From Nitrospinales bacterium (lineage in GTDB: Bacteria; Nitrospinota; Nitrospinia; Nitrospinales; JAJDAT01): a DNA stretch of 64,000 bases. How positions within the stretch are numbered: the first letter of the stretch is position 1; each line of letters opens with the position of its first letter. Of the stretch, positions 16,086-24,305 are shown piece by piece. The stretch covers positions 49,788 through 113,787 of the forward strand of contig JBHHYO010000001.1 of the NCBI GenBank assembly GCA_046757665.1, written 5' to 3'. The translations under genes and the position numbers were made by a program. The notes below the pieces were generated by a model. The model ran no database searches, was not told the DNA's origin, and worked only from the letters and a program-made list of their open reading frames with translations.

Positions 16086-17048
16086 TTAAACCCCAAGACT
16101 GCTCACGGCGTCCTGTAGCGACATGGCGATACAGGTAAAAATCGGAATGTCGTTTTCCGTGTAGCGGCTACCCTCCGTTTCCCTGAGGTCCATGACCAGG
16201 TCCAGAAAGTCCTGCGGATAGTCCGTCTCGAAGGCAACGACAAACTCGTTGTCGTCCAGACCGAACGAGTAGCTGGTGTTCAGTTTTACCGACGGGTACT
16301 TGTTGCCGATATAAATGTGCTCATCCATGATCCCCTGGCGGGTATGCTTGGTGAGCAGGTACCATTCCCGCTTCTTGGTGAAGGGGTAGATGAACAGATA
16401 CTTTGCCTTGCCCGGAATGATATGGGTCCGGTCTTCCTCATGTTCCGGGTTGAAGATATCGAGGTAGGTGGACTGTTTGGTCATGGAAAGATAAGAGTAA
16501 GTCTGGTTCAGGTATTTGCCTAACCCGGTGCTGTGCATCTTGGTGGTCATTTTCTGGAAATTTTCGATCTCATAGCTAATGCGCCAGAACATGATATCCG
16601 CGTCGCAACGAATACCCACCGTCGAATAACTCAGGACAATGATGTCGTCGTTGCTGTCGTAATCTTCGAGGACGTCGAGGTATTCCTTTTTCGCCTTGGC
16701 CTGCTCTTCCTGGGAAAGGCGCCTGAAAGCCGGGTCGAGCTTGTAAAACGCAAAATTGATGAACTGCCGCTTCACCTCTTTCTTGCCTTCAACAGCCTGG
16801 GTTTTTGCTTTTTCCTGTTCGGCTTGTCTTTTCTGCATCGCCGCGCCTTCACGCTCCTGCCGCGCGCGCGACACGACATCGTCATCTATGACCGAAACGC
16901 CGATGTCCTTGGCAAACTGCTCAATGCCGCGCACGACGCCCTTGCGCACGAAGAAAGGCACGTTTTTCATGCGGGCGCTGGCGCTTTCCGTCCATTGCAA
17001 CTCCGTTGTGGGCATCGACTCTTCCAGTTCCTTGTCATCAATACTCAT
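16086..17048 (-). CDS. Chlorite dismutase/coproheme decarboxylase (ChdC/HemQ) family protein with N-terminal PCP_red-like domain
   Basis: Probable start MSIDDK at 17048. N-terminal WTESASARMKNVPFFVRKGVVRGIEQFAK is PCP_red-like. C-terminal YPFTKKREWYLL, MDEHIYIG and SFGLDDNEFVVAFETD are Cld/ChdC-family motifs. Confidence 0.85.
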   Translation of the reverse strand: MSIDDKELEESMPTTELQWTESASARMKNVPFFVRKGVVRGIEQFAKDIGVSVIDDDVVSRARQEREGAAMQKRQAEQEKAKTQAVEGKKEVKRQFINFAFYKLDPAFRRLSQEEQAKAKKEYLDVLEDYDSNDDIIVLSYSTVGIRCDADIMFWRISYEIENFQKMTTKMHSTGLGKYLNQTYSYLSMTKQSTYLDIFNPEHEEDRTHIIPGKAKYLFIYPFTKKREWYLLTKHTRQGIMDEHIYIGNKYPSVKLNTSYSFGLDDNEFVVAFETDYPQDFLDLVMDLRETEGSRYTENDIPIFTCIAMSLQDAVSSLGV

Positions 17049-17260
17049 GGTTTGTTCTCTGCTTTGTTGGGTTTTTAAAAAAAATCTTTTCCGGTTCAGG
17101 GAGGATTCGACGGCCTTCCCGCGGAAGTTCACTTTAAAATGAATTGAATTAAAATCTATAATAGACTGGGCGAAATGGAATTTCAACCATTATGCCCCTC
17201 GATTTTTAGGCGGCGCGGTTTTCGATCTCCGGGGCGCCCGGTTCACAAGGAAGCGGAACG

Positions 17261-18463
17261 ATGAACACACAGGATTACATCCGATTGGAAAACGAATACG
17301 GCGCGCATAATTATCAGCCGCTCGATGTGGTATTGTGCCGGGGCGAAGGCATTTGGGTCTGGGATGTCGAAGGCAAAAAGTACCTGGATTGCCTGTCGTC
17401 CTACTCCGCCGTGAACCAGGGCCATTGCCACCCCAAAATCTTGCGTACCCTGGTCGAGCAGGCCGGCAAACTGACGCTCGTCTCGCGCGCGTTCCGCAAC
17501 GACCAACTGGGCTTGTTTTACCGGGAAATCTGCGAGCTGACCCGGTCGCACAGCGTACTGCCCATGAACAGCGGCGCCGAGGCCGTCGAGTCCGCCATCA
17601 AGGCGGTGCGCAAGTGGGGCTACCAGATCAAGAAAGTCCCGCCGGGCCGGGCGGAAATCATCACCTGCGCCAACAATTTTCACGGCCGCACCCTGACCAT
17701 TGTCGGATTCAGCACCGAGTCCCAGTACCGCGACGGTTACGCCCCCTTCACCCCCGGATTCAAAACCATCCCCTTCGGCGACGCGGCAAGCCTGGAGAAA
17801 ACCATCACCGACAATACCGTTGCGTTCCTGGTCGAGCCCATCCAGGGAGAGGGCGGGGTGGTCCTGCCGCCGCCGGGCTATTTGAAATCCGTCCGCAAAA
17901 TCTGCGACGACCGCAACGTCATTCTGGTGCTCGACGAAATACAAACCGGGCTGGGCCGCACCGGCAAACTGTTCGCCGAGGAGTACGATTCCATTCAGTC
18001 GGACCTGACCCTAGTGGGCAAGGCATTGTCCGGTGGCTTCTATCCCGTCTCCGCCGTACTCTCCAACAAGGAGGTGCTCGGCGTTTTCCGGCCGGGCGAC
18101 CACGGGAGCACCTTCGGCGGCAATCCCCTGGCCTGCGCCGTGGCGCGGACGGCGCTGAAAACGCTGGTGGAGGAACGTATGATCGAAAACGCCGCCGCCA
18201 TGGGAGAATATTTTTTAGCCAAACTTCATGAAATCGATTCCCCGCATATCAAGGAAATCCGCGGCCGGGGACTGCTGATCGGCGTCGAGCTGTTTCCGCA
18301 GGCCGGCGGGGCGCGCCGGTTTTGCGAGGCGCTCATGCAAACGGGCATCCTTTGCAAGGAAACCCATCAACACGTCATCCGCTTCGCGCCGCCCCTCATC
18401 ATCCGGAAAGAAAACATCGACTGGGCCATGGAGCGGATTCACACCGCGCTGACGCGGAAGTGA
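17261..18463 (+). CDS. rocD: Ornithine--oxo-acid aminotransferase
   Basis: [52 protein letters not shown] (PLP lysine), [11 protein letters not shown]. Confidence 0.95.
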
Positions 18464-18483: not shown

Positions 18484-19233
18484 CTACAACCCGGTGGGAT
18501 AGTCGAGAAACTCGGTCTCGATGCCGAACTGGTCCCGCAAGTGACGGCCCACCGCCAAAACGCCGCCCGTTTCCGTGGCGTAATGGCCCGCCAGAATGAG
18601 CACGCATCCACCCTCGATGGCGTCGTGAAAGTGGTTGTTGGCGCCTTCCCCGGTGATATAGCAATCGAGATTTTCATTGACCGCCTGCTGAATGATATCG
18701 CCGGCGCCGCCGGTGACCAGGCCCAGCGTTTCGACGTCGCCACTGCCGATCACTTTCGCGGGCGCGCCCAGTTTTTCCTCAAGTTCCCGGCCCAGCGTCG
18801 CGGCGGAGCGGCGCGCGATTTTTCCCTTCAAACCGATTTTTATGCCGCCGTACTCGCCGAACGGTTCCCGATTCCGCAAATCCACCTTGTCGGCCAGGGC
18901 CTTGTTGTTTCCCAGGACGGGATGAACATCCAGAGGAATGTGGGCGGAGTACAAGCCGATGTTGGCCCGGATCATGAGCGCCAGCTTTTCGTATAACTTG
19001 CCGCGCACCGGCCGCGCTCCGCCCCAGAACATCCCGTGGTGGACGAAAAGCATGTCGCACTTTTTATCGACCGCCATCCGCAGAGTGGCCAGACAAAGAT
19101 CGACCGCCAACCCGATCCTCCTGACCTCGCCGGTGTTCTCCACTTGTAGCCCGTTGAAGGCGTTCGGCGAATCCTCGATGGAACCGATGTTCAGCAAGCC
19201 GTCCAGATAATGCGAAAGCCGTACGATGTCCAT
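18484..19233 (-). CDS. Nif3-like dinuclear metal centre hexameric protein (YbgI family)
   Basis: NGLQVEN, FVHHGMFW, YSAHIPLDVHPVLGNN, YITGE, GHYATE. Start MDIVRL at 19233. Confidence 0.93.
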   Translation of the reverse strand: MDIVRLSHYLDGLLNIGSIEDSPNAFNGLQVENTGEVRRIGLAVDLCLATLRMAVDKKCDMLFVHHGMFWGGARPVRGKLYEKLALMIRANIGLYSAHIPLDVHPVLGNNKALADKVDLRNREPFGEYGGIKIGLKGKIARRSAATLGRELEEKLGAPAKVIGSGDVETLGLVTGGAGDIIQQAVNENLDCYITGEGANNHFHDAIEGGCVLILAGHYATETGGVLAVGRHLRDQFGIETEFLDYPTGL

Positions 19234-19240
19234 GGCAAAA

Positions 19241-19269
19241 AGTATAACCGAAACCCGCCCCGGTGTCAT
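19241..19269 (-). promoter_or_regulatory. Predicted sigma70-type promoter for nif3 (leaderless)
   Basis: Minus strand reads ATGACA (19269-19264), 17 bp, TATACT (19246-19241), 7 nt, then ATG at 19233. No SD is present. Confidence 0.6.
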
Positions 19270-19343
19270 CGCGAGTCGCCCTGGGCGGCGTGGCGATCCA
19301 GCCTTCTGGATTGCTTCGTCGGCTGAGCCGCCTCGCAATGACA
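19264..19343. repeat. REP/RPE-like palindromic element (GTCATTGCGAG...CTCGCAATGAC type)
   Basis: Outer arms TGTCATCGCGAG / CTCGCAATGACA (one mismatch). Inner arms CGTGGCGATCCAG / CTGGATTGCTTCG. Two small side hairpins. Confidence 0.75.
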
Positions 19344-19674
19344 ATCAACCAAGGATACTTGTGCAAAGGTCTCTCAAGGAAGAAGGTTTAGGAAATTTTT
19401 TCTTCGCGTCCTCCGCGCCTTTGCGGTTCCAGATTTTTCCCGCCAACCGCCAACGGTCAACAGACCCTCTATAAATAGCGTACGGTGCAGGGTCCTCCGG
19501 GCGCAACGCCTTTGAATCCGGCAAGTTGAAAAGACAATGGGGGTAGGTGTTCGCCCGCGGAAAACAGGTCACGGAAAAATTATAACCAAATCCGTTACGG
19601 ACAAAAGTTATTCGCCAATATCTGTGTCTGGTATCATATTGCGTGTTAGAATTACTGACGATTTGTGGGGGAGA

Positions 19675-20877
19675 ATGGCGAGCGAGGATGGAATGATAAG
19701 TCCGGATAAAATTGAGACGTTAATAAAAAAACCCGAATCCGACCGAATCGAAAAGAAAGAATCGCTGTCGGATAAAGATAAAATCCGCCAAACCATTTGT
19801 GCCTTTGCCAACGATTTGCCCAATCATGACAAACCCGGTTATTTGTTGGTCGGCATTTGCGATGACGAGACATTTAGCGGTGTTGAAGTTACGGATAAAA
19901 TTCTGCGGGATTTGTCTGATTTAAGGTCAGACGGCAATATTCTTCCTCCGCCCGTAATTACGGTGGAAAAAGCCAACGCTCAAGGATATGATGTTGCCGT
20001 TGTGGCAGTGCAACCTTCAAGATCACCCCCTGTCCGATGTCGGGGGCGAACCTATGTTCGCGTGGGGCCTACGACTCGTGTTGCCAACGGGGAGGAGGAG
20101 AGGCGTCTCTCGGAAAAAAGGAGGCATAAAAATACTCCCTTTGATCAGCAACCTCAAGAAGAAGCCACATTAGATGATCTGGATTTGGAGTTTTTTAATA
20201 GAACCTATCTTCCTGGCGTTGTGGATCGAGAAGCTTTAAGAGCGAATGAACGTTTAGTTGGAGATAGGTTGATTTCTTGCCGCCTGCTGGCTCCCGATGG
20301 AAGGACTCCGACTATTGCCGGTATACTTATTTTGGGCATTGATCCCAAACGATGGATTCCCGGCGCGTATATCCAGTTTTTGCGTGTGGATGGTTCGGAA
20401 CTTTCCGATCCGATCATTGATTCCAAGGAATTAAGTAGCAACCTGAACTCCCAGGCTTCCCTGGTTGCTGATCTTTTGAAATTAAATATTCACTCCGCCT
20501 CGAACGTGGGGAAGGATTTTCGCAGGCAGGAAACTCTGGATTACCCCGATGAAGCATTGAGAGAGCTTGTTTTTAATGCCCTGATTCATCGAACTTATGA
20601 AGGAACCAACGCGCCAGTCAGAATAAGCTGGTTCGACGATAGGATAGAGATAACAAGTCCAGGTGGATTGTTCGGGAACGTCACTCCGGAAAATTTCGGG
20701 CAATTCACCGATTATCGAAACCCCACTATTGCGGAAGCCATGAGAGCCTTGGGATATGTTGAAAAATTTGGTGTTGGAGTCCAAAGGGCGAGAAAGCTTC
20801 TGGAAAAAAACGGCAATCCTCCGCCGGATTTTAACTTTGACGAGCAGGCATTTGTCCTGGTTACCGTAAAAAAGTGA
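19675..20877 (+). CDS. Schlafen/AlbA_2 domain plus HATPase_c_4 (RecG-C-like) domain protein
   Basis: ESDRIEKKES, ICAFAN and GYLLVGICDD (AlbA_2). YPDEALRELVFNALIHR, IEITSPGGL, YRNPTIA and VEKFGVGV (HATPase_c_4). Start at 19675 or 19693. Confidence 0.88.
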   Translation: MASEDGMISPDKIETLIKKPESDRIEKKESLSDKDKIRQTICAFANDLPNHDKPGYLLVGICDDETFSGVEVTDKILRDLSDLRSDGNILPPPVITVEKANAQGYDVAVVAVQPSRSPPVRCRGRTYVRVGPTTRVANGEEERRLSEKRRHKNTPFDQQPQEEATLDDLDLEFFNRTYLPGVVDREALRANERLVGDRLISCRLLAPDGRTPTIAGILILGIDPKRWIPGAYIQFLRVDGSELSDPIIDSKELSSNLNSQASLVADLLKLNIHSASNVGKDFRRQETLDYPDEALRELVFNALIHRTYEGTNAPVRISWFDDRIEITSPGGLFGNVTPENFGQFTDYRNPTIAEAMRALGYVEKFGVGVQRARKLLEKNGNPPPDFNFDEQAFVLVTVKK

Positions 20878-21878
20878 TCATGAAAACACTGGTTTTGTTC
20901 AACAATAAGGGAGGGGTGGGAAAAACCACGCTGGTCTATCATCTGGCGCATATGTTTTCCCGGATGGATTTCAGAACCTTGGCTGTCGATTTGGATCCCC
21001 AAGCCAATCTTACCAGTGCTTTTCTGGATGAGGACCGCGTGGAAGAGTTATGGGATCCCGACGATGGCGGGGATACCATCTTGGGTTGCCTTAACCCGAT
21101 CCTCGTCGGAGAGGGTGGGGTTGCGGAGCCGTCCTTGGAAGAAATTCGCGATAGGCTTTGGATACTTCCTGGTCATTTGGGGTTAAGCCGGTTTGAAGAT
21201 AAGCTTTCGGAAAGTTGGCCTAAAGTTTATAACGAAGATATTGCGGCTCTTAAAACGACGACGGCTTTTTATCGAATTATCCTTAAAGCAAGTAAGCAGG
21301 TCAATGCGGATGTGACTCTGATTGATGTCGGGCCAAACCTTGGCGCCATTAATCGGTCCGCAATCTTGGCCGCCGATTATCTTCTTGTGCCCTTGGCCGC
21401 CGACCTTTTTTCGCTTCAGGGTCTTAGGAACTTAGGACCCACCGTTCGAAAATGGAGAAGTCAGTGGCAAGACATGAAAGAAAAAGTTCCCGATGAAATT
21501 GAAATACCATCAGGGACAATGAAACCCATCGGTTATCTTGTGGTCCAGCATGAGGTTCGCAAGGATCGTCCGGTAAAAGCTTTTCTCCGCTGGGCGGATC
21601 GAATCCCTGGCGTTTACTCAAAGGATGTTTTGAGTGAGAAAGATTCACGATCAAGTATTGCTGAAGATCCCAATTGTCTCATTCAACTAAAAAACTTCAA
21701 AAGTTTGATGCCAATGGCTCAAGATGCCCGCAAACCCATGTTTGAACTTAAAAGCGCCGATGGAGCCATTGGCGGTCATGTCCGATTTGTTGCCGACTGT
21801 TATGATGAATTTGAAAAATTGGCCAGGAAAGTGTTGCAAAAAATCGGCTTGGAAATTTGTCAGCCGAAAGAGCCTTAG
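20874..21878 (+). CDS. ParA/Soj-family P-loop ATPase (orphan, no parB)
   Basis: Deviant Walker A FNNKGGVGKTT, VDLDPQANLT, LIDVGPNLGAINRS. GTG overlaps the upstream stop (GTGA); alternative ATG at 20880. Confidence 0.9.
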   Translation: MIMKTLVLFNNKGGVGKTTLVYHLAHMFSRMDFRTLAVDLDPQANLTSAFLDEDRVEELWDPDDGGDTILGCLNPILVGEGGVAEPSLEEIRDRLWILPGHLGLSRFEDKLSESWPKVYNEDIAALKTTTAFYRIILKASKQVNADVTLIDVGPNLGAINRSAILAADYLLVPLAADLFSLQGLRNLGPTVRKWRSQWQDMKEKVPDEIEIPSGTMKPIGYLVVQHEVRKDRPVKAFLRWADRIPGVYSKDVLSEKDSRSSIAEDPNCLIQLKNFKSLMPMAQDARKPMFELKSADGAIGGHVRFVADCYDEFEKLARKVLQKIGLEICQPKEP

Positions 21879-21926
21879 TCCCGATTTCAAGGAAGATGAG
21901 ATTTTGGCACATGCTTTTTGGTTACG

Positions 21927-24305
21927 TCAGAACTCGACGAGGGTGACGCCGTCGCCGCCTTCGCCGGGCGGGCCGGGGGTGACGCTTTTGCCGATGCCGC
22001 CGCTTTCCAGATAGTCGCGGACGAATTTCTTGATGGCTCCCGTGCCGTGGCCGTGGATGATTTTGACTTGCCCCATGTTGTTGAGCATGGCCTGATCGAT
22101 AAAGGATTCCAGGGCGCGTTTTGCCTCGTCCATCCTCATGCCGCGCAAATCGCAGGTATGTGATTGCGGCGGCGTGGATTCCACGGTCAGGTTGATCGTC
22201 GGTTTTGCCGGTTTGGGCGCGGGAGGGGTTTTGCCGTCGCCGGCGCGGCCGCGCAGGCGTTGGGTCTCGACGCGGGTTTCCAGGTTGCCGAGTTTGACGA
22301 GAACCTTCTTTTTGCCCTGCGGGTTTTCCAGAAGTTTGCCGCGCGCGCCGTAGGTATCGACGACGACGTCCTCGCCCTCCCGGAGTTTGTCGGCGGGAAC
22401 GTTCCATTCGGAAAGGTCGGGCCGGACGGCGGCCGGCGGGACGCGGCCCAGCGAACGAACCTGCCGGTCCGCCGCGCGGATTTTTTCCGGATCGCGGGCT
22501 CCCTTGATGTCGCGCAGTATTTTGTGGATCGTGTTCCGAGCGTCACGGACGGTTCCCTGAAGCCGCTTGGCTTTGTTCTTTTGAAACTCCAGTTCCCGGT
22601 CGCGCAGGTTTTGCGTCAGGGTTTGCTGTTCTTCCTTGAGTCGTTGCGTTTCTGCGAGCCGTTCGGCAAGCGATGCCTTTTCTTTCTCCAGGCGCAGTTT
22701 TTGATGGCGCAGGGATTGCAGAAGCGCGTCGGCGCGGGTGTCCTTCTCATCGTAAATGTTGCGGGCTCTGGCGATGATCTCGTGGCTCAGGCCCAGCCGT
22801 TCGGCGGTTTCCAGGGCGGCGCTACCGCCGGGCACGCCGAAGATCAGCTTGTAAGTGGGTTGCAGGGAGTCCCGGTCAAACTCGGTGCAGGCGTTGAGAA
22901 ACCCTTCCTGGGTTTGCGCCAGGGTTTTGAGCGCCAGAAAATGCGTGGACACCAGCGTCATCATGCCCTTGCGTTTCAATTCCAGGAGAATGGCCTCGGC
23001 CAGCGCCGCGCCCTGCAAGGGGTCCGTGGCGATTCCCAACTCGTCGAGCAGGACGAGTGAGCCGGGCGGGGCGTGGGTGAGGATGCTGACGATTTTGCCG
23101 AGATGCGCGGAAAAGGTCGAAAGGCTTTGCTGGATGTTTTGTTCGTCGCCGATGTCCGCGTAGACCCGCGGGAAGAATCCGATTTCGGAATCCTCGTCCA
23201 GCGGCAGGAGGAGACCGGCGCGCGCCATGAGCGCCATCAATCCCACGGTTTTCAGGGTGACCGTTTTGCCGCCGGTGTTGGGTCCGGAAATGATGATGAC
23301 GCGGCAGGCGTCGTCCCAGCAAATATCGTTGGCCACCACGTCTTGTCCGTTGAGAAGCAGTTCCGGGTTTCTTGCCCCTTTCAAGCGGACCCGGCACTCG
23401 CGGCTGAACGTGAACCGCCGGGCTTGCAGGGTTTTTGCCAGCCGGCGTTTGGCGTGAATGAGGTCGAGGTTGACGAGGACGGCGAAATCGGCGAGCAACG
23501 GCCGGCTGTGTTCCACCGCCGTCCGCGCCAGATGGCGCAGGATTCTCAGTTTTTCCTGCTCGACCTTGATGCGGTTGATTTTCAATTGGTTGTTCAGGGG
23601 GATCACTTTCGTGGGTTCCATGTAAAAGGTGGCGCCGCTTCCGGAACTGTCGTGGACGATGCCGTCAATCCGGCCCTTGTATTCCGAGCGGACGGGAAAG
23701 ACCAGCCGTCCCTCCCGCTCGGTGGTGTAGGAATCCTGGATGGCGTCCTTGAATTCGGGGCTTCCCAGCAGTTTGTTGACGGACTTGTCCCGTTTGTCCT
23801 TGGCCTCGCGGACGGCGCGCACCGCTTGTTTCAGTTCCGGGGAAGCGGTGTCTTTTATTTCGCTTTCGTCGCTGATGCAACGTTCCAGTTCCTTGAGAAA
23901 ATCGGGCAGGAGGGTCAGGCGGGCGGCGTAGTCGCCGAGCAGGCCGGAGCGTTTGGCGAAAAAACTTTTTATCGATTTCGCCAGGCGCAGGAATTTCAGG
24001 ATGTGTAGCGCTTGCTCCGGCTCGAGGATTCCCCGGGCGGCGGCGTCATCGAGAAGCGGGCGGATGTCCTCGAAGGCGCAGAGCGGCGGGGTTTCCGCCG
24101 CTTCATCCAGCGCGGTCATCTCTTCGGTCTCGCGCAGGGCTTTTTGGGCGCCGTCGAAATCGGGTTCGGGGCGGAGGTCAAGGCATCGGTCCCGGGTGGC
24201 CGGCGAATAGGCCAGACCGGCAAGCGCATTGCGGATGATGTCCCAGCCGAGCAGGGCCGTGGATTTCTCCAGCAATTGGCCGTGGTCCGGCGGGGATGGC
24301 ATCAT
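21927..24305 (-). CDS. mutS2: MutS2 endonuclease / ribosome collision factor
   Basis: SGPNTGGKT, ADIGDEQNIQQSLSTFSAH, LLDELG, and C-terminal Smr domain DLRGM...IIHGHGTG. Confidence 0.95.
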   Translation of the reverse strand: MMPSPPDHGQLLEKSTALLGWDIIRNALAGLAYSPATRDRCLDLRPEPDFDGAQKALRETEEMTALDEAAETPPLCAFEDIRPLLDDAAARGILEPEQALHILKFLRLAKSIKSFFAKRSGLLGDYAARLTLLPDFLKELERCISDESEIKDTASPELKQAVRAVREAKDKRDKSVNKLLGSPEFKDAIQDSYTTEREGRLVFPVRSEYKGRIDGIVHDSSGSGATFYMEPTKVIPLNNQLKINRIKVEQEKLRILRHLARTAVEHSRPLLADFAVLVNLDLIHAKRRLAKTLQARRFTFSRECRVRLKGARNPELLLNGQDVVANDICWDDACRVIIISGPNTGGKTVTLKTVGLMALMARAGLLLPLDEDSEIGFFPRVYADIGDEQNIQQSLSTFSAHLGKIVSILTHAPPGSLVLLDELGIATDPLQGAALAEAILLELKRKGMMTLVSTHFLALKTLAQTQEGFLNACTEFDRDSLQPTYKLIFGVPGGSAALETAERLGLSHEIIARARNIYDEKDTRADALLQSLRHQKLRLEKEKASLAERLAETQRLKEEQQTLTQNLRDRELEFQKNKAKRLQGTVRDARNTIHKILRDIKGARDPEKIRAADRQVRSLGRVPPAAVRPDLSEWNVPADKLREGEDVVVDTYGARGKLLENPQGKKKVLVKLGNLETRVETQRLRGRAGDGKTPPAPKPAKPTINLTVESTPPQSHTCDLRGMRMDEAKRALESFIDQAMLNNMGQVKIIHGHGTGAIKKFVRDYLESGGIGKSVTPGPPGEGGDGVTLVEF

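Follow-up and report, generated by a model that had tools for sequence, protein, structure and literature searches.

'ParA-effector systems' were defined by Li, Burroughs and Aravind in a late-2026 bioRxiv preprint (10.64898/2026.10.19.760177), which proposes a model in which ParA intercepts invader DNA and an effector is released if interception fails. The pairing of a Schlafen gene with a ParA gene is item (iii) of the systems predicted there, without experiment, and ParAs of the ConB1 branch are described as pairing with Tox-RelA, Sirtuin, HEPN and others. Here we describe such a pair in a 64,000-nucleotide stretch of the genome of a Nitrospinales bacterium (NCBI GenBank assembly GCA_046757665.1, contig JBHHYO010000001.1, positions 49,788 to 113,787 of the forward strand), hereafter the window, where a Schlafen-GHKL gene and a ParA gene form an islet between a nif3-family gene and mutS2. 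A first-pass annotation, made from the letters of the window alone, had not recognised the pairing as a named system; the preprint lists it. Our analysis indicates that the islet is probably a horizontally acquired, two-gene anti-phage or anti-plasmid conflict cassette of the ParA-effector kind, in which a Schlafen-GHKL tRNase effector would be gated by a DNA-binding ParA sensor.

The effector half of the pair has described relatives of its own. Schlafens with an Ex4(E/D)xK motif defend against phage (Perez Taboada et al., Nat Microbiol 2026, PMC13056530). Specifically, a phage protein triggers RorSlfn5, a Mn-dependent tRNase. Of the groups pSlfn1-55, pSlfn1 (pSlfn.His_Kinase_A) is the commonest (2,017/5,930), and its group defence score is 0.71 (PMC13056530). 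The combination of SLFN and PF13749 has been named 'Schlatpase', and in the SLFN-pAgo protein RzAgo, ATP binding by PF13749 leads to tetramerisation, licensing tRNA cleavage (10.64898/2026.05.29.728809). In addition, Schlafen-minimal histidine kinase-winged helix-turn-helix (wHTH) proteins are embedded as 'backup effectors' in BREX and BREX-related DUF499 systems (NAR 2026, PMC12839542). These four sources are drawn on in part, and what is said of them here holds for those parts.

The islet is composed of two intact, translationally coupled genes on one strand, as judged from the open reading frame (ORF) list and Pfam. In the 446-residue longest ORF of the upstream gene (19537..20877, +), SLFN_AlbA_2 matches residues 67-183 (E-value 7.8e-19) and HATPase_c_4 matches residues 359-441 (8.9e-22), with no further Pfam domain. 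A terminal helix-turn-helix (HTH) is ruled out because HATPase_c_4 stops five residues before the end, and Pfam gives no HTH match in this protein; NCBIfam gives nothing for it. The acidic motif ESDRIEKK and the GHKL-like C-terminal domain lacking an HTH, both pointed out in the first-pass annotation, are thereby borne out. The downstream gene encodes a ParA ATPase (AAA_31, 1.3e-29, plus CbiA). The window ParA is thus operonically coupled to a Schlafen plus GHKL/histidine-kinase-like effector, as described for ParA-effector systems.

The pairing of the Schlafen and ParA genes is not chance. When the source genome (G000) was compared with 40 relatives from its order, only 3 of the 41 genomes, G000, G020 and G025, proved to have a close ParA (E ≤ 1e-100), and they have it at unrelated sites. 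The ParAs of G020 and G025 show 50-52% identity (E about 1e-107), and in both genomes a Schlafen-GHKL gene lies directly upstream and overlaps ParA, with flanks unrelated to nif3/mutS2. A profile of the ParA family further retrieved 80 metagenome loci whose ParAs are 48-61% identical. A Schlafen homologue lies directly upstream on the same strand in 68 of the 80; 6 loci have less than 400 nt of upstream sequence and are not judgeable, which makes the share 68 of 74 among the others. The ParA-coupled Schlafen homologues measure 393-425 amino acids, and the source names of the matches place the pair in several bacterial lineages. A scan of genome contigs with the single ParA protein recovered at least one locus, L012. 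In the plasmid and isolated-phage collections, the ParA relatives recovered were all distant (24.6-32.6% identity) and lay outside the Schlafen-coupled clade, so that this search yielded no ready model in a laboratory host.

The two genes are also joined in a characteristic way. A 4-nt stop/start overlap (ATGA, GTGA or TTGA) is present at 64 of 73 junctions, drawn from metagenome loci, genome loci and one close viral-contig locus, and at overlapping junctions an AGGAG-type site usually lies inside the end of the Schlafen gene. Furthermore, the ParA and Schlafen distance matrices of 45 loci correlate (r 0.605), a value reached by 0 of 2000 Mantel permutations; such a correlation of sequence distances shows co-inheritance, not by itself co-evolution. 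Mean pairwise identity is 56.6% for ParA versus 49.8% for its Schlafen partner.

Composition sets the islet apart from its surroundings. Its GC content is 46.8%, against a window mean of 56.2% (standard deviation 2.9%, 2.2-kb windows), making it the lowest-GC 2.2 kb in the 64-kb window; 0.4% of 1236 sliding windows are as low, every one overlapping the islet. The GC3 values of the islet genes are 0.444 and 0.465, whereas those of the flanking genes are 0.771 (nif3), 0.767 (mutS2) and 0.793 (the gene at 17261-18463). Composition and patchy occurrence support horizontal acquisition of the islet, in line with the first-pass annotation. Its low-GC unit of two coupled genes is confirmed, and two checks that it proposed, on whether homologues co-occur as a pair and whether they fall near defence islands, gave supporting results.

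Defence genes adjoin the pair in a number of other loci (Table 1). We scanned 164 of 167 neighbours of at least 130 amino acids within three called genes using Pfam, and 40 of them also through PADLOC; three ORFs of locus L060 that repeat the layout of L058 were left out of the scan. Firm defence genes lie within three genes of the pair in 12 of the 57 pair loci with a scannable neighbour, and L060 can be added as one further case inferred from the layout of L058. These genes include Hma, BREX and type III restriction-modification (R-M) components. Weaker defence hints are present in five more pair loci (L036, L037, L074, L075 and L085), and transposases lie beside the pair in L034, L042 and L086. 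A defence role of the pair is thus supported by context. The ParA-effector preprint, in the part cited, differs here in making no mention of Hma, DUF1156 or DISARM, and in naming BREX or R-M only for other ParA or PAACC systems.

The placement of the pair is reminiscent of the BREX 'backup effectors', in which the same Schlafen-GHKL core occurs in BREX and DUF499/DUF1156 loci (Hma in PADLOC terms). Those effectors, however, carry a wHTH of their own and no ParA, the word ParA occurring 0 times in PMC12839542, while the window protein lacks a wHTH and is followed by ParA. Locus L060, which is of the Hma type, holds a second Schlafen-GHKL gene directly after the pair (L060:6043-7779), encoding 578 amino acids with a MarR-type HTH (MarR_2). 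Both kinds of Schlafen gene can therefore coexist in one locus.

More distant relatives of the ParA, at 28-33% identity, carry other genes directly downstream. In particular, RelA_SpoT follows the distant ParA in L004, L005 and L006 (three related genomes), with a small gene of ~190 amino acids upstream of ParA in L004 and L005; SIR2_2 follows it in nine viral/prophage-contig loci; and a HEPN gene follows it in one viral/prophage-contig locus, L116. The sister ParAs of the preprint, with Tox-RelA (and a small upstream gene), Sirtuin and HEPN as partners, are thus all three recovered independently here. As far as gene content can indicate, this combination of one unchanging ATPase with toxin-type partners that can be exchanged is what one would expect to see in a conflict system.

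The architecture of the Schlafen protein is that of 'Schlatpase' and pSlfn1. Like pSlfn1, it has an N-terminal Schlafen domain with an Ex4(E/D)xK motif and a histidine-kinase-like domain; like Schlatpase and RzAgo, it combines SLFN_AlbA_2 and PF13749 in one chain, with a SAFAN-type motif and an N-box. It differs from RzAgo in having no Argonaute core, its sensor presumably being the separate ParA. The pSlfns differ in that PMC13056530, in the part cited, treats them as single-gene systems with fused sensors and mentions no ParA partner. By analogy with RorSlfn5 and RzAgo, we infer that the window protein would cleave tRNA in a metal-dependent manner. The COG2865-type regulator, with AlbA_2, HATPase_c_4 and wHTH, was rejected as a family assignment because the C-terminal HTH is missing.

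We aligned 45 ParA-coupled Schlafen sequences, with residues numbered from the ATG at 19675. The acidic residues E21 and E26 of the Ex4ExK motif are invariant in 45 of 45 homologues. In the CAFAN motif, C42 and N46 are invariant and A43, F44 and A45 are at least 90% conserved. In the GHKL part, position 328 is N in 23 sequences and S in 22, and G366 and G368 are invariant alongside the box residues given in Table 1. GHKL ATPases place the general base four residues before the N-box Asn. By this position, and not by structural superposition, residue 297 (window 20563-20565) corresponds to the general-base Glu of RzAgo, E314; it is kept as E297 in the window copy, is E in 17 of the 45 sequences and is Q in 28.

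The AlphaFold2 (AF2) model of the Schlafen protein has a predicted local distance difference test (pLDDT) score of 92.6. Its best match in the Protein Data Bank (PDB) is 3LMM (E 2.1e-20), followed by histidine-kinase CA domains and human SLFN11, SLFN12 and SLFN14. 3LMM is an AlbA_2-GHKL-HTH protein of 583 amino acids that aligns in sequence with the window protein only over the GHKL part, and the overall TM-score is only 0.47, with a root-mean-square deviation of 12.8 Å, which suggests that the modelled domain arrangement of the window protein is different. PADLOC returned partial matches for the Schlafen protein, to the SLFN-GHKL portions of pAgo-associated models, namely to Aga_SIR2-PNTD1-PNTD2 (1.3e-19, residues 183-427) and to the pAgo model PDLC02394 (1.1e-11, residues 67-437 of the 446-residue ORF).

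The ParA protein carries the expected ATPase motifs. All 26 of the 26 aligned sequences keep K12 and K17 of the deviant Walker A and, in the Walker A' and B regions, D39, D41 and D151. Conservation is also good in the C-terminal half, a part specific to the family, where mean column identity is 0.66 (residues 191-320) versus 0.73 (residues 1-190); the preprint, by contrast, describes rapidly evolving ParA C-terminal extensions in the part cited. The AF2 model (pLDDT 89.5, predicted TM-score 0.89) best matches 3PG5 in the PDB (E 4.7e-17, TM 0.66-0.74), followed by Soj, ParA and McdA, and the match of the family profile to 3PG5 (E 1.4e-44) runs over the full length, with the family-specific C-terminal part included. 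3PG5 (DIP2308) and 3LMM (DIP2311) are structural-genomics proteins of Corynebacterium diphtheriae, from one genome with locus tags three apart, and were deposited uncharacterised. They may form a related system, of which both structures are solved.

Although the window ParA resembles the ATPases of ParABS and Soj-Spo0J systems in its fold, in its KGGVGKT deviant Walker A and in having Soj/ParA among its top structural matches, it has no ParB or parS partner. Its neighbours are the Schlafen gene upstream and the convergent mutS2 downstream, so the first-pass annotation was right to call it a ParA without parB; a true ParA-ParB pair, found in L009, differs. NCBIfam partition models score the protein far under their cut-offs (57.8 versus 180 and 59.7 versus 348). 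A classical partition role was rejected for want of a ParB. PADLOC gives a weak PDC-M28B match (1.9e-6), and a separate Soj-like match lies elsewhere in the source genome (G000:C51).

Two further ParA homologues were observed in passing. P0023 (393 amino acids) has an N-terminal extension of ~65 residues that resembles the start of a Schlafen domain, with an ES-type acidic motif and an ALAN-type motif, and that could be what is left of the upstream Schlafen gene after truncation or fusion. Salmonella phage ST160 (L124, NC_014900.1 11482-12555) has a distant ParA-like gene of 26% identity. In the P22-like phages ST160 and SE1, this gene lies in the immunity region, with the c2 repressor on one side and gp24 on the other, and adjoins a DUF3024 gene. 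The c2-gp24 type of immunity-region position often holds phage-borne defence or exclusion genes.

The ends of the two genes were placed as follows. The first-pass annotation had started the islet at 19560; the ATG at 19675, which gives 400 amino acids, is the most likely start by sequence, rather than 19537 or 19560, because a GGGGGAG Shine-Dalgarno sequence lies just 5′ of this ATG and because of the homologue lengths given above. The GTGA overlap that it had read at 20874-20877 is present in the sequence, while the ParA start that this overlap implies may give way to the ATG at 20880, which lies two bases past the Schlafen TGA; ParA homologues start with MKT, and the genes are coupled under either start. 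The spacer to the left presumably holds the putative promoter and left boundary of the cassette. In a promoter and terminator scan, matches were not above shuffles, promoter-like ones for this spacer (19231..19674) numbering 5 versus 3.0 +/- 1.8, and a search for direct repeats or a target-site duplication flanking the islet gave only short, chance-level repeats. Further to the left, a 366-residue ORF (window 16086-17186, −) has a long N-terminal extension followed by a C-terminal part that resembles chlorite dismutase/HemQ by eye only.

Table 1. Features of the islet and its flanks (window coordinates), and defence genes beside the pair in other loci.
Feature	Position or locus	Strand	Basis or remark
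DUF34_NIF3 (nif3)	18484..19344	-	Pfam
Spacer, divergent nif3 start to Schlafen start	19231..19674	.	GC 0.516, intermediate between both sides
Schlafen (SLFN_AlbA_2) + GHKL (PF13749) protein without HTH, 400 amino acids, predicted RNase effector	19675..20877	+	Pfam
Ex4ExK nuclease motif, ESDRIEKK (E21, E26, K28)	19735..19758	+	fits Ex4ExK as defined in the cited part of PMC13056530
CAFAN motif, counterpart of Schlafen 'SAFAN'	19798..19812	+	SAFAN named in the cited part of 10.64898/2026.05.29.728809
GHKL N-box, E297...N301-A302..H305-R306	20563..20592	+	N301, A302, H305, R306 invariant
GHKL G1-like box, SPGG (family: N/S-P-G-G)	20656..20667	+	P329, G330 invariant
Gene junction GTGATCATG	20874..20882	+	Schlafen TGA within/next to ParA start (GTG 20874 or ATG 20880)
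ParA/AAA_31 ATPase of 'ParA-effector' kind, 334 amino acids (332 from ATG 20880)	20874..21878	+	Pfam
Deviant Walker A KGGVGKT (signature lysine K12, K17)	20907..20927	+	K12, K17 invariant in 26/26
mutS2, MutS_V+Smr	21927..24305	-	Pfam
Hma genes flanking pair	L024, L049, L058, L064, L071, L080, L092	same as pair	HmaA helicase, HmaB DUF1156 methylase, HmaC DUF499 ATPase
DUF1156 methylase by pair	L069		
BREX	L018		PglX-[pair]-BrxC-PglZ
Type III R-M	L084		Res-[pair]-Mod
Large methylase by pair	L016		
SNF2 helicase + HNH gene + DUF4062-GHKL gene	L077		

A complex of the two proteins was also predicted, as the first-pass annotation had proposed. With both alignments, the Schlafen-ParA prediction reached ipSAE scores of 0.51, 0.50 and 0.57, versus 0.02 for the best control, with at least 86% of contacts common between runs and a partner pLDDT of at least 85. 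In calibration, 116 of 157 solved complexes attained the mark, as did 2 of 215 mismatches.

The most likely mechanism, by analogy, is abortive infection through an effector that cuts tRNA and that a DNA-binding ParA keeps gated. In this mechanism, the Schlafen-GHKL protein would be a stand-alone effector. ATP bound by its GHKL domain would drive formation of a dimer or tetramer, as in characterised relatives, and thereby build a two-lobed Schlafen nuclease; the assembled nuclease would cut tRNA, and translation would stop, giving abortive infection. ParA, as an ATP-bound dimer, would bind DNA and take over in trans the sensing and gating for which other Schlafen defence proteins use a fused domain (wHTH, Argonaute or Ig-like). 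It would hold the RNase inactive as long as neither invading DNA nor the loss of the host nucleoid alters the nucleotide- or DNA-bound state of ParA. The analysis shows the domains with their intact motifs, the close operonic coupling, the co-inheritance, the patchy occurrence with foreign composition and the position within known defence operons; we infer the RNase activity, the tRNA target, the Schlafen-ParA binding, what ParA senses and the direction of control.

Several observations weigh against a gated anti-phage effector. In 36 of the 57 scannable pair loci, as in the window, the flanks are housekeeping or unannotated genes only; the cassette thus occurs in two settings, alone as an islet and inserted in methylation-based defence operons. 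ParA stands without a Schlafen gene in 6 of the 74 judgeable loci (L015, L025, L035, L041, L047 and L072), where the upstream genes have no Pfam or PADLOC match except for a NOV_C/TmtA-like one in L072; directly upstream of ParA in L072 is the C-terminus of an HmaA/TmtA-like helicase, and L025 has an AbiLi-like ATPase downstream. No pre-insertion site could be demonstrated from the 20 relatives searched for nif3 and mutS2 (G001-G020), because the two genes are non-adjacent in all of them, lying on different contigs or, in closed genomes, more than 1 Mb apart; among these genomes the nif3-mutS2 adjacency is unique to the source genome, and the islet therefore sits at a synteny breakpoint.

The proteins themselves add to these points. 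K28 of the Ex4ExK motif is K in 31 of the 45 sequences and T in 14, and ATP hydrolysis by the GHKL domain cannot, to judge from the alignment, be essential to the mechanism of the family, because Q stands in the place of the general base in 28 of the 45 relatives. The complex score gives weak support to the predicted Schlafen-ParA contact, given that calibration scores of at most 0.60 take in only 18 of the 157 solved complexes plus both passing mismatches. PADLOC-DB v2.0.0 (2023) gives no system-level match for either protein, only the partial matches mentioned above. Furthermore, seven Schlafen constructs, including HisKinase fusions, have been tested, and protection was given only by DUF262 and Ig-like fusions, so that the HisKinase-fused Schlafens gave none (PMC13056530, in the part cited). 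Our search of the literature on Schlafen and ParA found no experimental test of the ParA-coupled form; two further defence-discovery papers mention Schlafen, with no ParA partner.

The pair might instead be a selfish, toxin-antitoxin (TA)-like addiction cassette, in which ParA would bind and neutralise the Schlafen RNase as a toxin, loss of the cassette would kill the cell, no net phage protection would result and placement in Hma or BREX loci would serve island stabilisation. This would suit a mobile, overlapping, low-GC two-gene unit whose genes are co-inherited, which is inserted alone among housekeeping genes in most loci, which is adjoined by transposases in the three loci named above and whose products show a weakly supported predicted contact (0.51 versus 0.02 for the best control). 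However, with 334 residues and invariant ATPase motifs, ParA far exceeds known proteic antitoxins in size and elaboration, the service of one ParA clade to four unrelated effector chemistries is easier to reconcile with a common sensor than with a tailored antitoxin, and ParA is found alone in 6 of 74 loci, in a set in which RNase-alone loci were not sampled. We regard an addiction cassette as unlikely, if worth keeping in mind, and TA and abortive-infection roles are not exclusive. It is quite unlikely, in our assessment, that ParA is itself the first line of defence, coating and sequestering phage or plasmid DNA through its C-terminal region and so blocking replication or transcription, with the Schlafen RNase as back-up on failure. 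Such an order of events is the model of the preprint (10.64898/2026.10.19.760177, in the part cited), the nearest folds to that of the ParA, next to 3PG5, are DNA-binding Soj/ParA structures, and the embedding in R-M-like operons resembles that of the BREX 'backup effectors' (PMC12839542, in the part cited); against it, ParA is more conserved than its partner by the mean identities given above, and both DNA binding and discrimination of foreign DNA by ParA would have to be assumed.

That the pair has no conflict role at all, and is a regulatory or positioning module such as a nucleoid-tethered RNA-processing enzyme or an HTH-less COG2865-type regulator with ParA as localisation factor, seems to us very improbable. 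AlbA_2-HATPase_c_4 proteins have long been annotated as regulators or as 'RecG-like' (titles of 3LMM and 2KYY), the flanks are housekeeping genes at most pair loci, and ParA proteins position many cargos. A module of this kind would nevertheless sit poorly with a patchy distribution (3 of 41 related genomes), with the foreign composition of the islet, with an insertion site that differs in every genome examined, with same-strand embedding in Hma, BREX and type III R-M operons, and with the replacement of the Schlafen partner by toxin-type domains (RelA_SpoT, SIR2 or HEPN).

The gated Schlafen-GHKL effector, which remains our preferred account, can be extended in a way that we put forward tentatively and consider rather doubtful. 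ParA would be the trans replacement of the wHTH that is fused in the very common Schlafen-GHKL-wHTH proteins, an ATP-dependent clamp that senses the state of DNA and physically gates tetramerisation of the tRNase; the cassette would plug into methylation-based systems such as Hma, BREX and type III R-M as a second-line, abortive effector; and the frequent change from Glu to Gln at the GHKL general base would mean that the timing ATPase had moved from the effector to ParA. If ParA does replace the wHTH, the non-protection by stand-alone HisKinase-Schlafens could sometimes mean a missing partner. Beyond the cited parts of the literature, our analysis makes modest additions, namely that the HTH-less, ParA-coupled form is embedded on the same strand in operons of the Hma, BREX and type III R-M kinds, and that the GHKL general base is split between Glu and Gln.

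Schlafen-GHKL is the commonest prokaryotic Schlafen architecture, and the coupled, conserved ParA is a concrete candidate for the sensor that it lacks. The proposal that ParA ATPases take part in immunity is very recent, and our literature search found no test of a ParA-effector system; the clade described here is a practical entry point, with compact proteins, confident models, the solved homologues 3PG5 and 3LMM and an obvious genetic tie to Hma, BREX and R-M. In the Nitrospinota genome itself, the cassette would be a recently acquired accessory defence gene pair.

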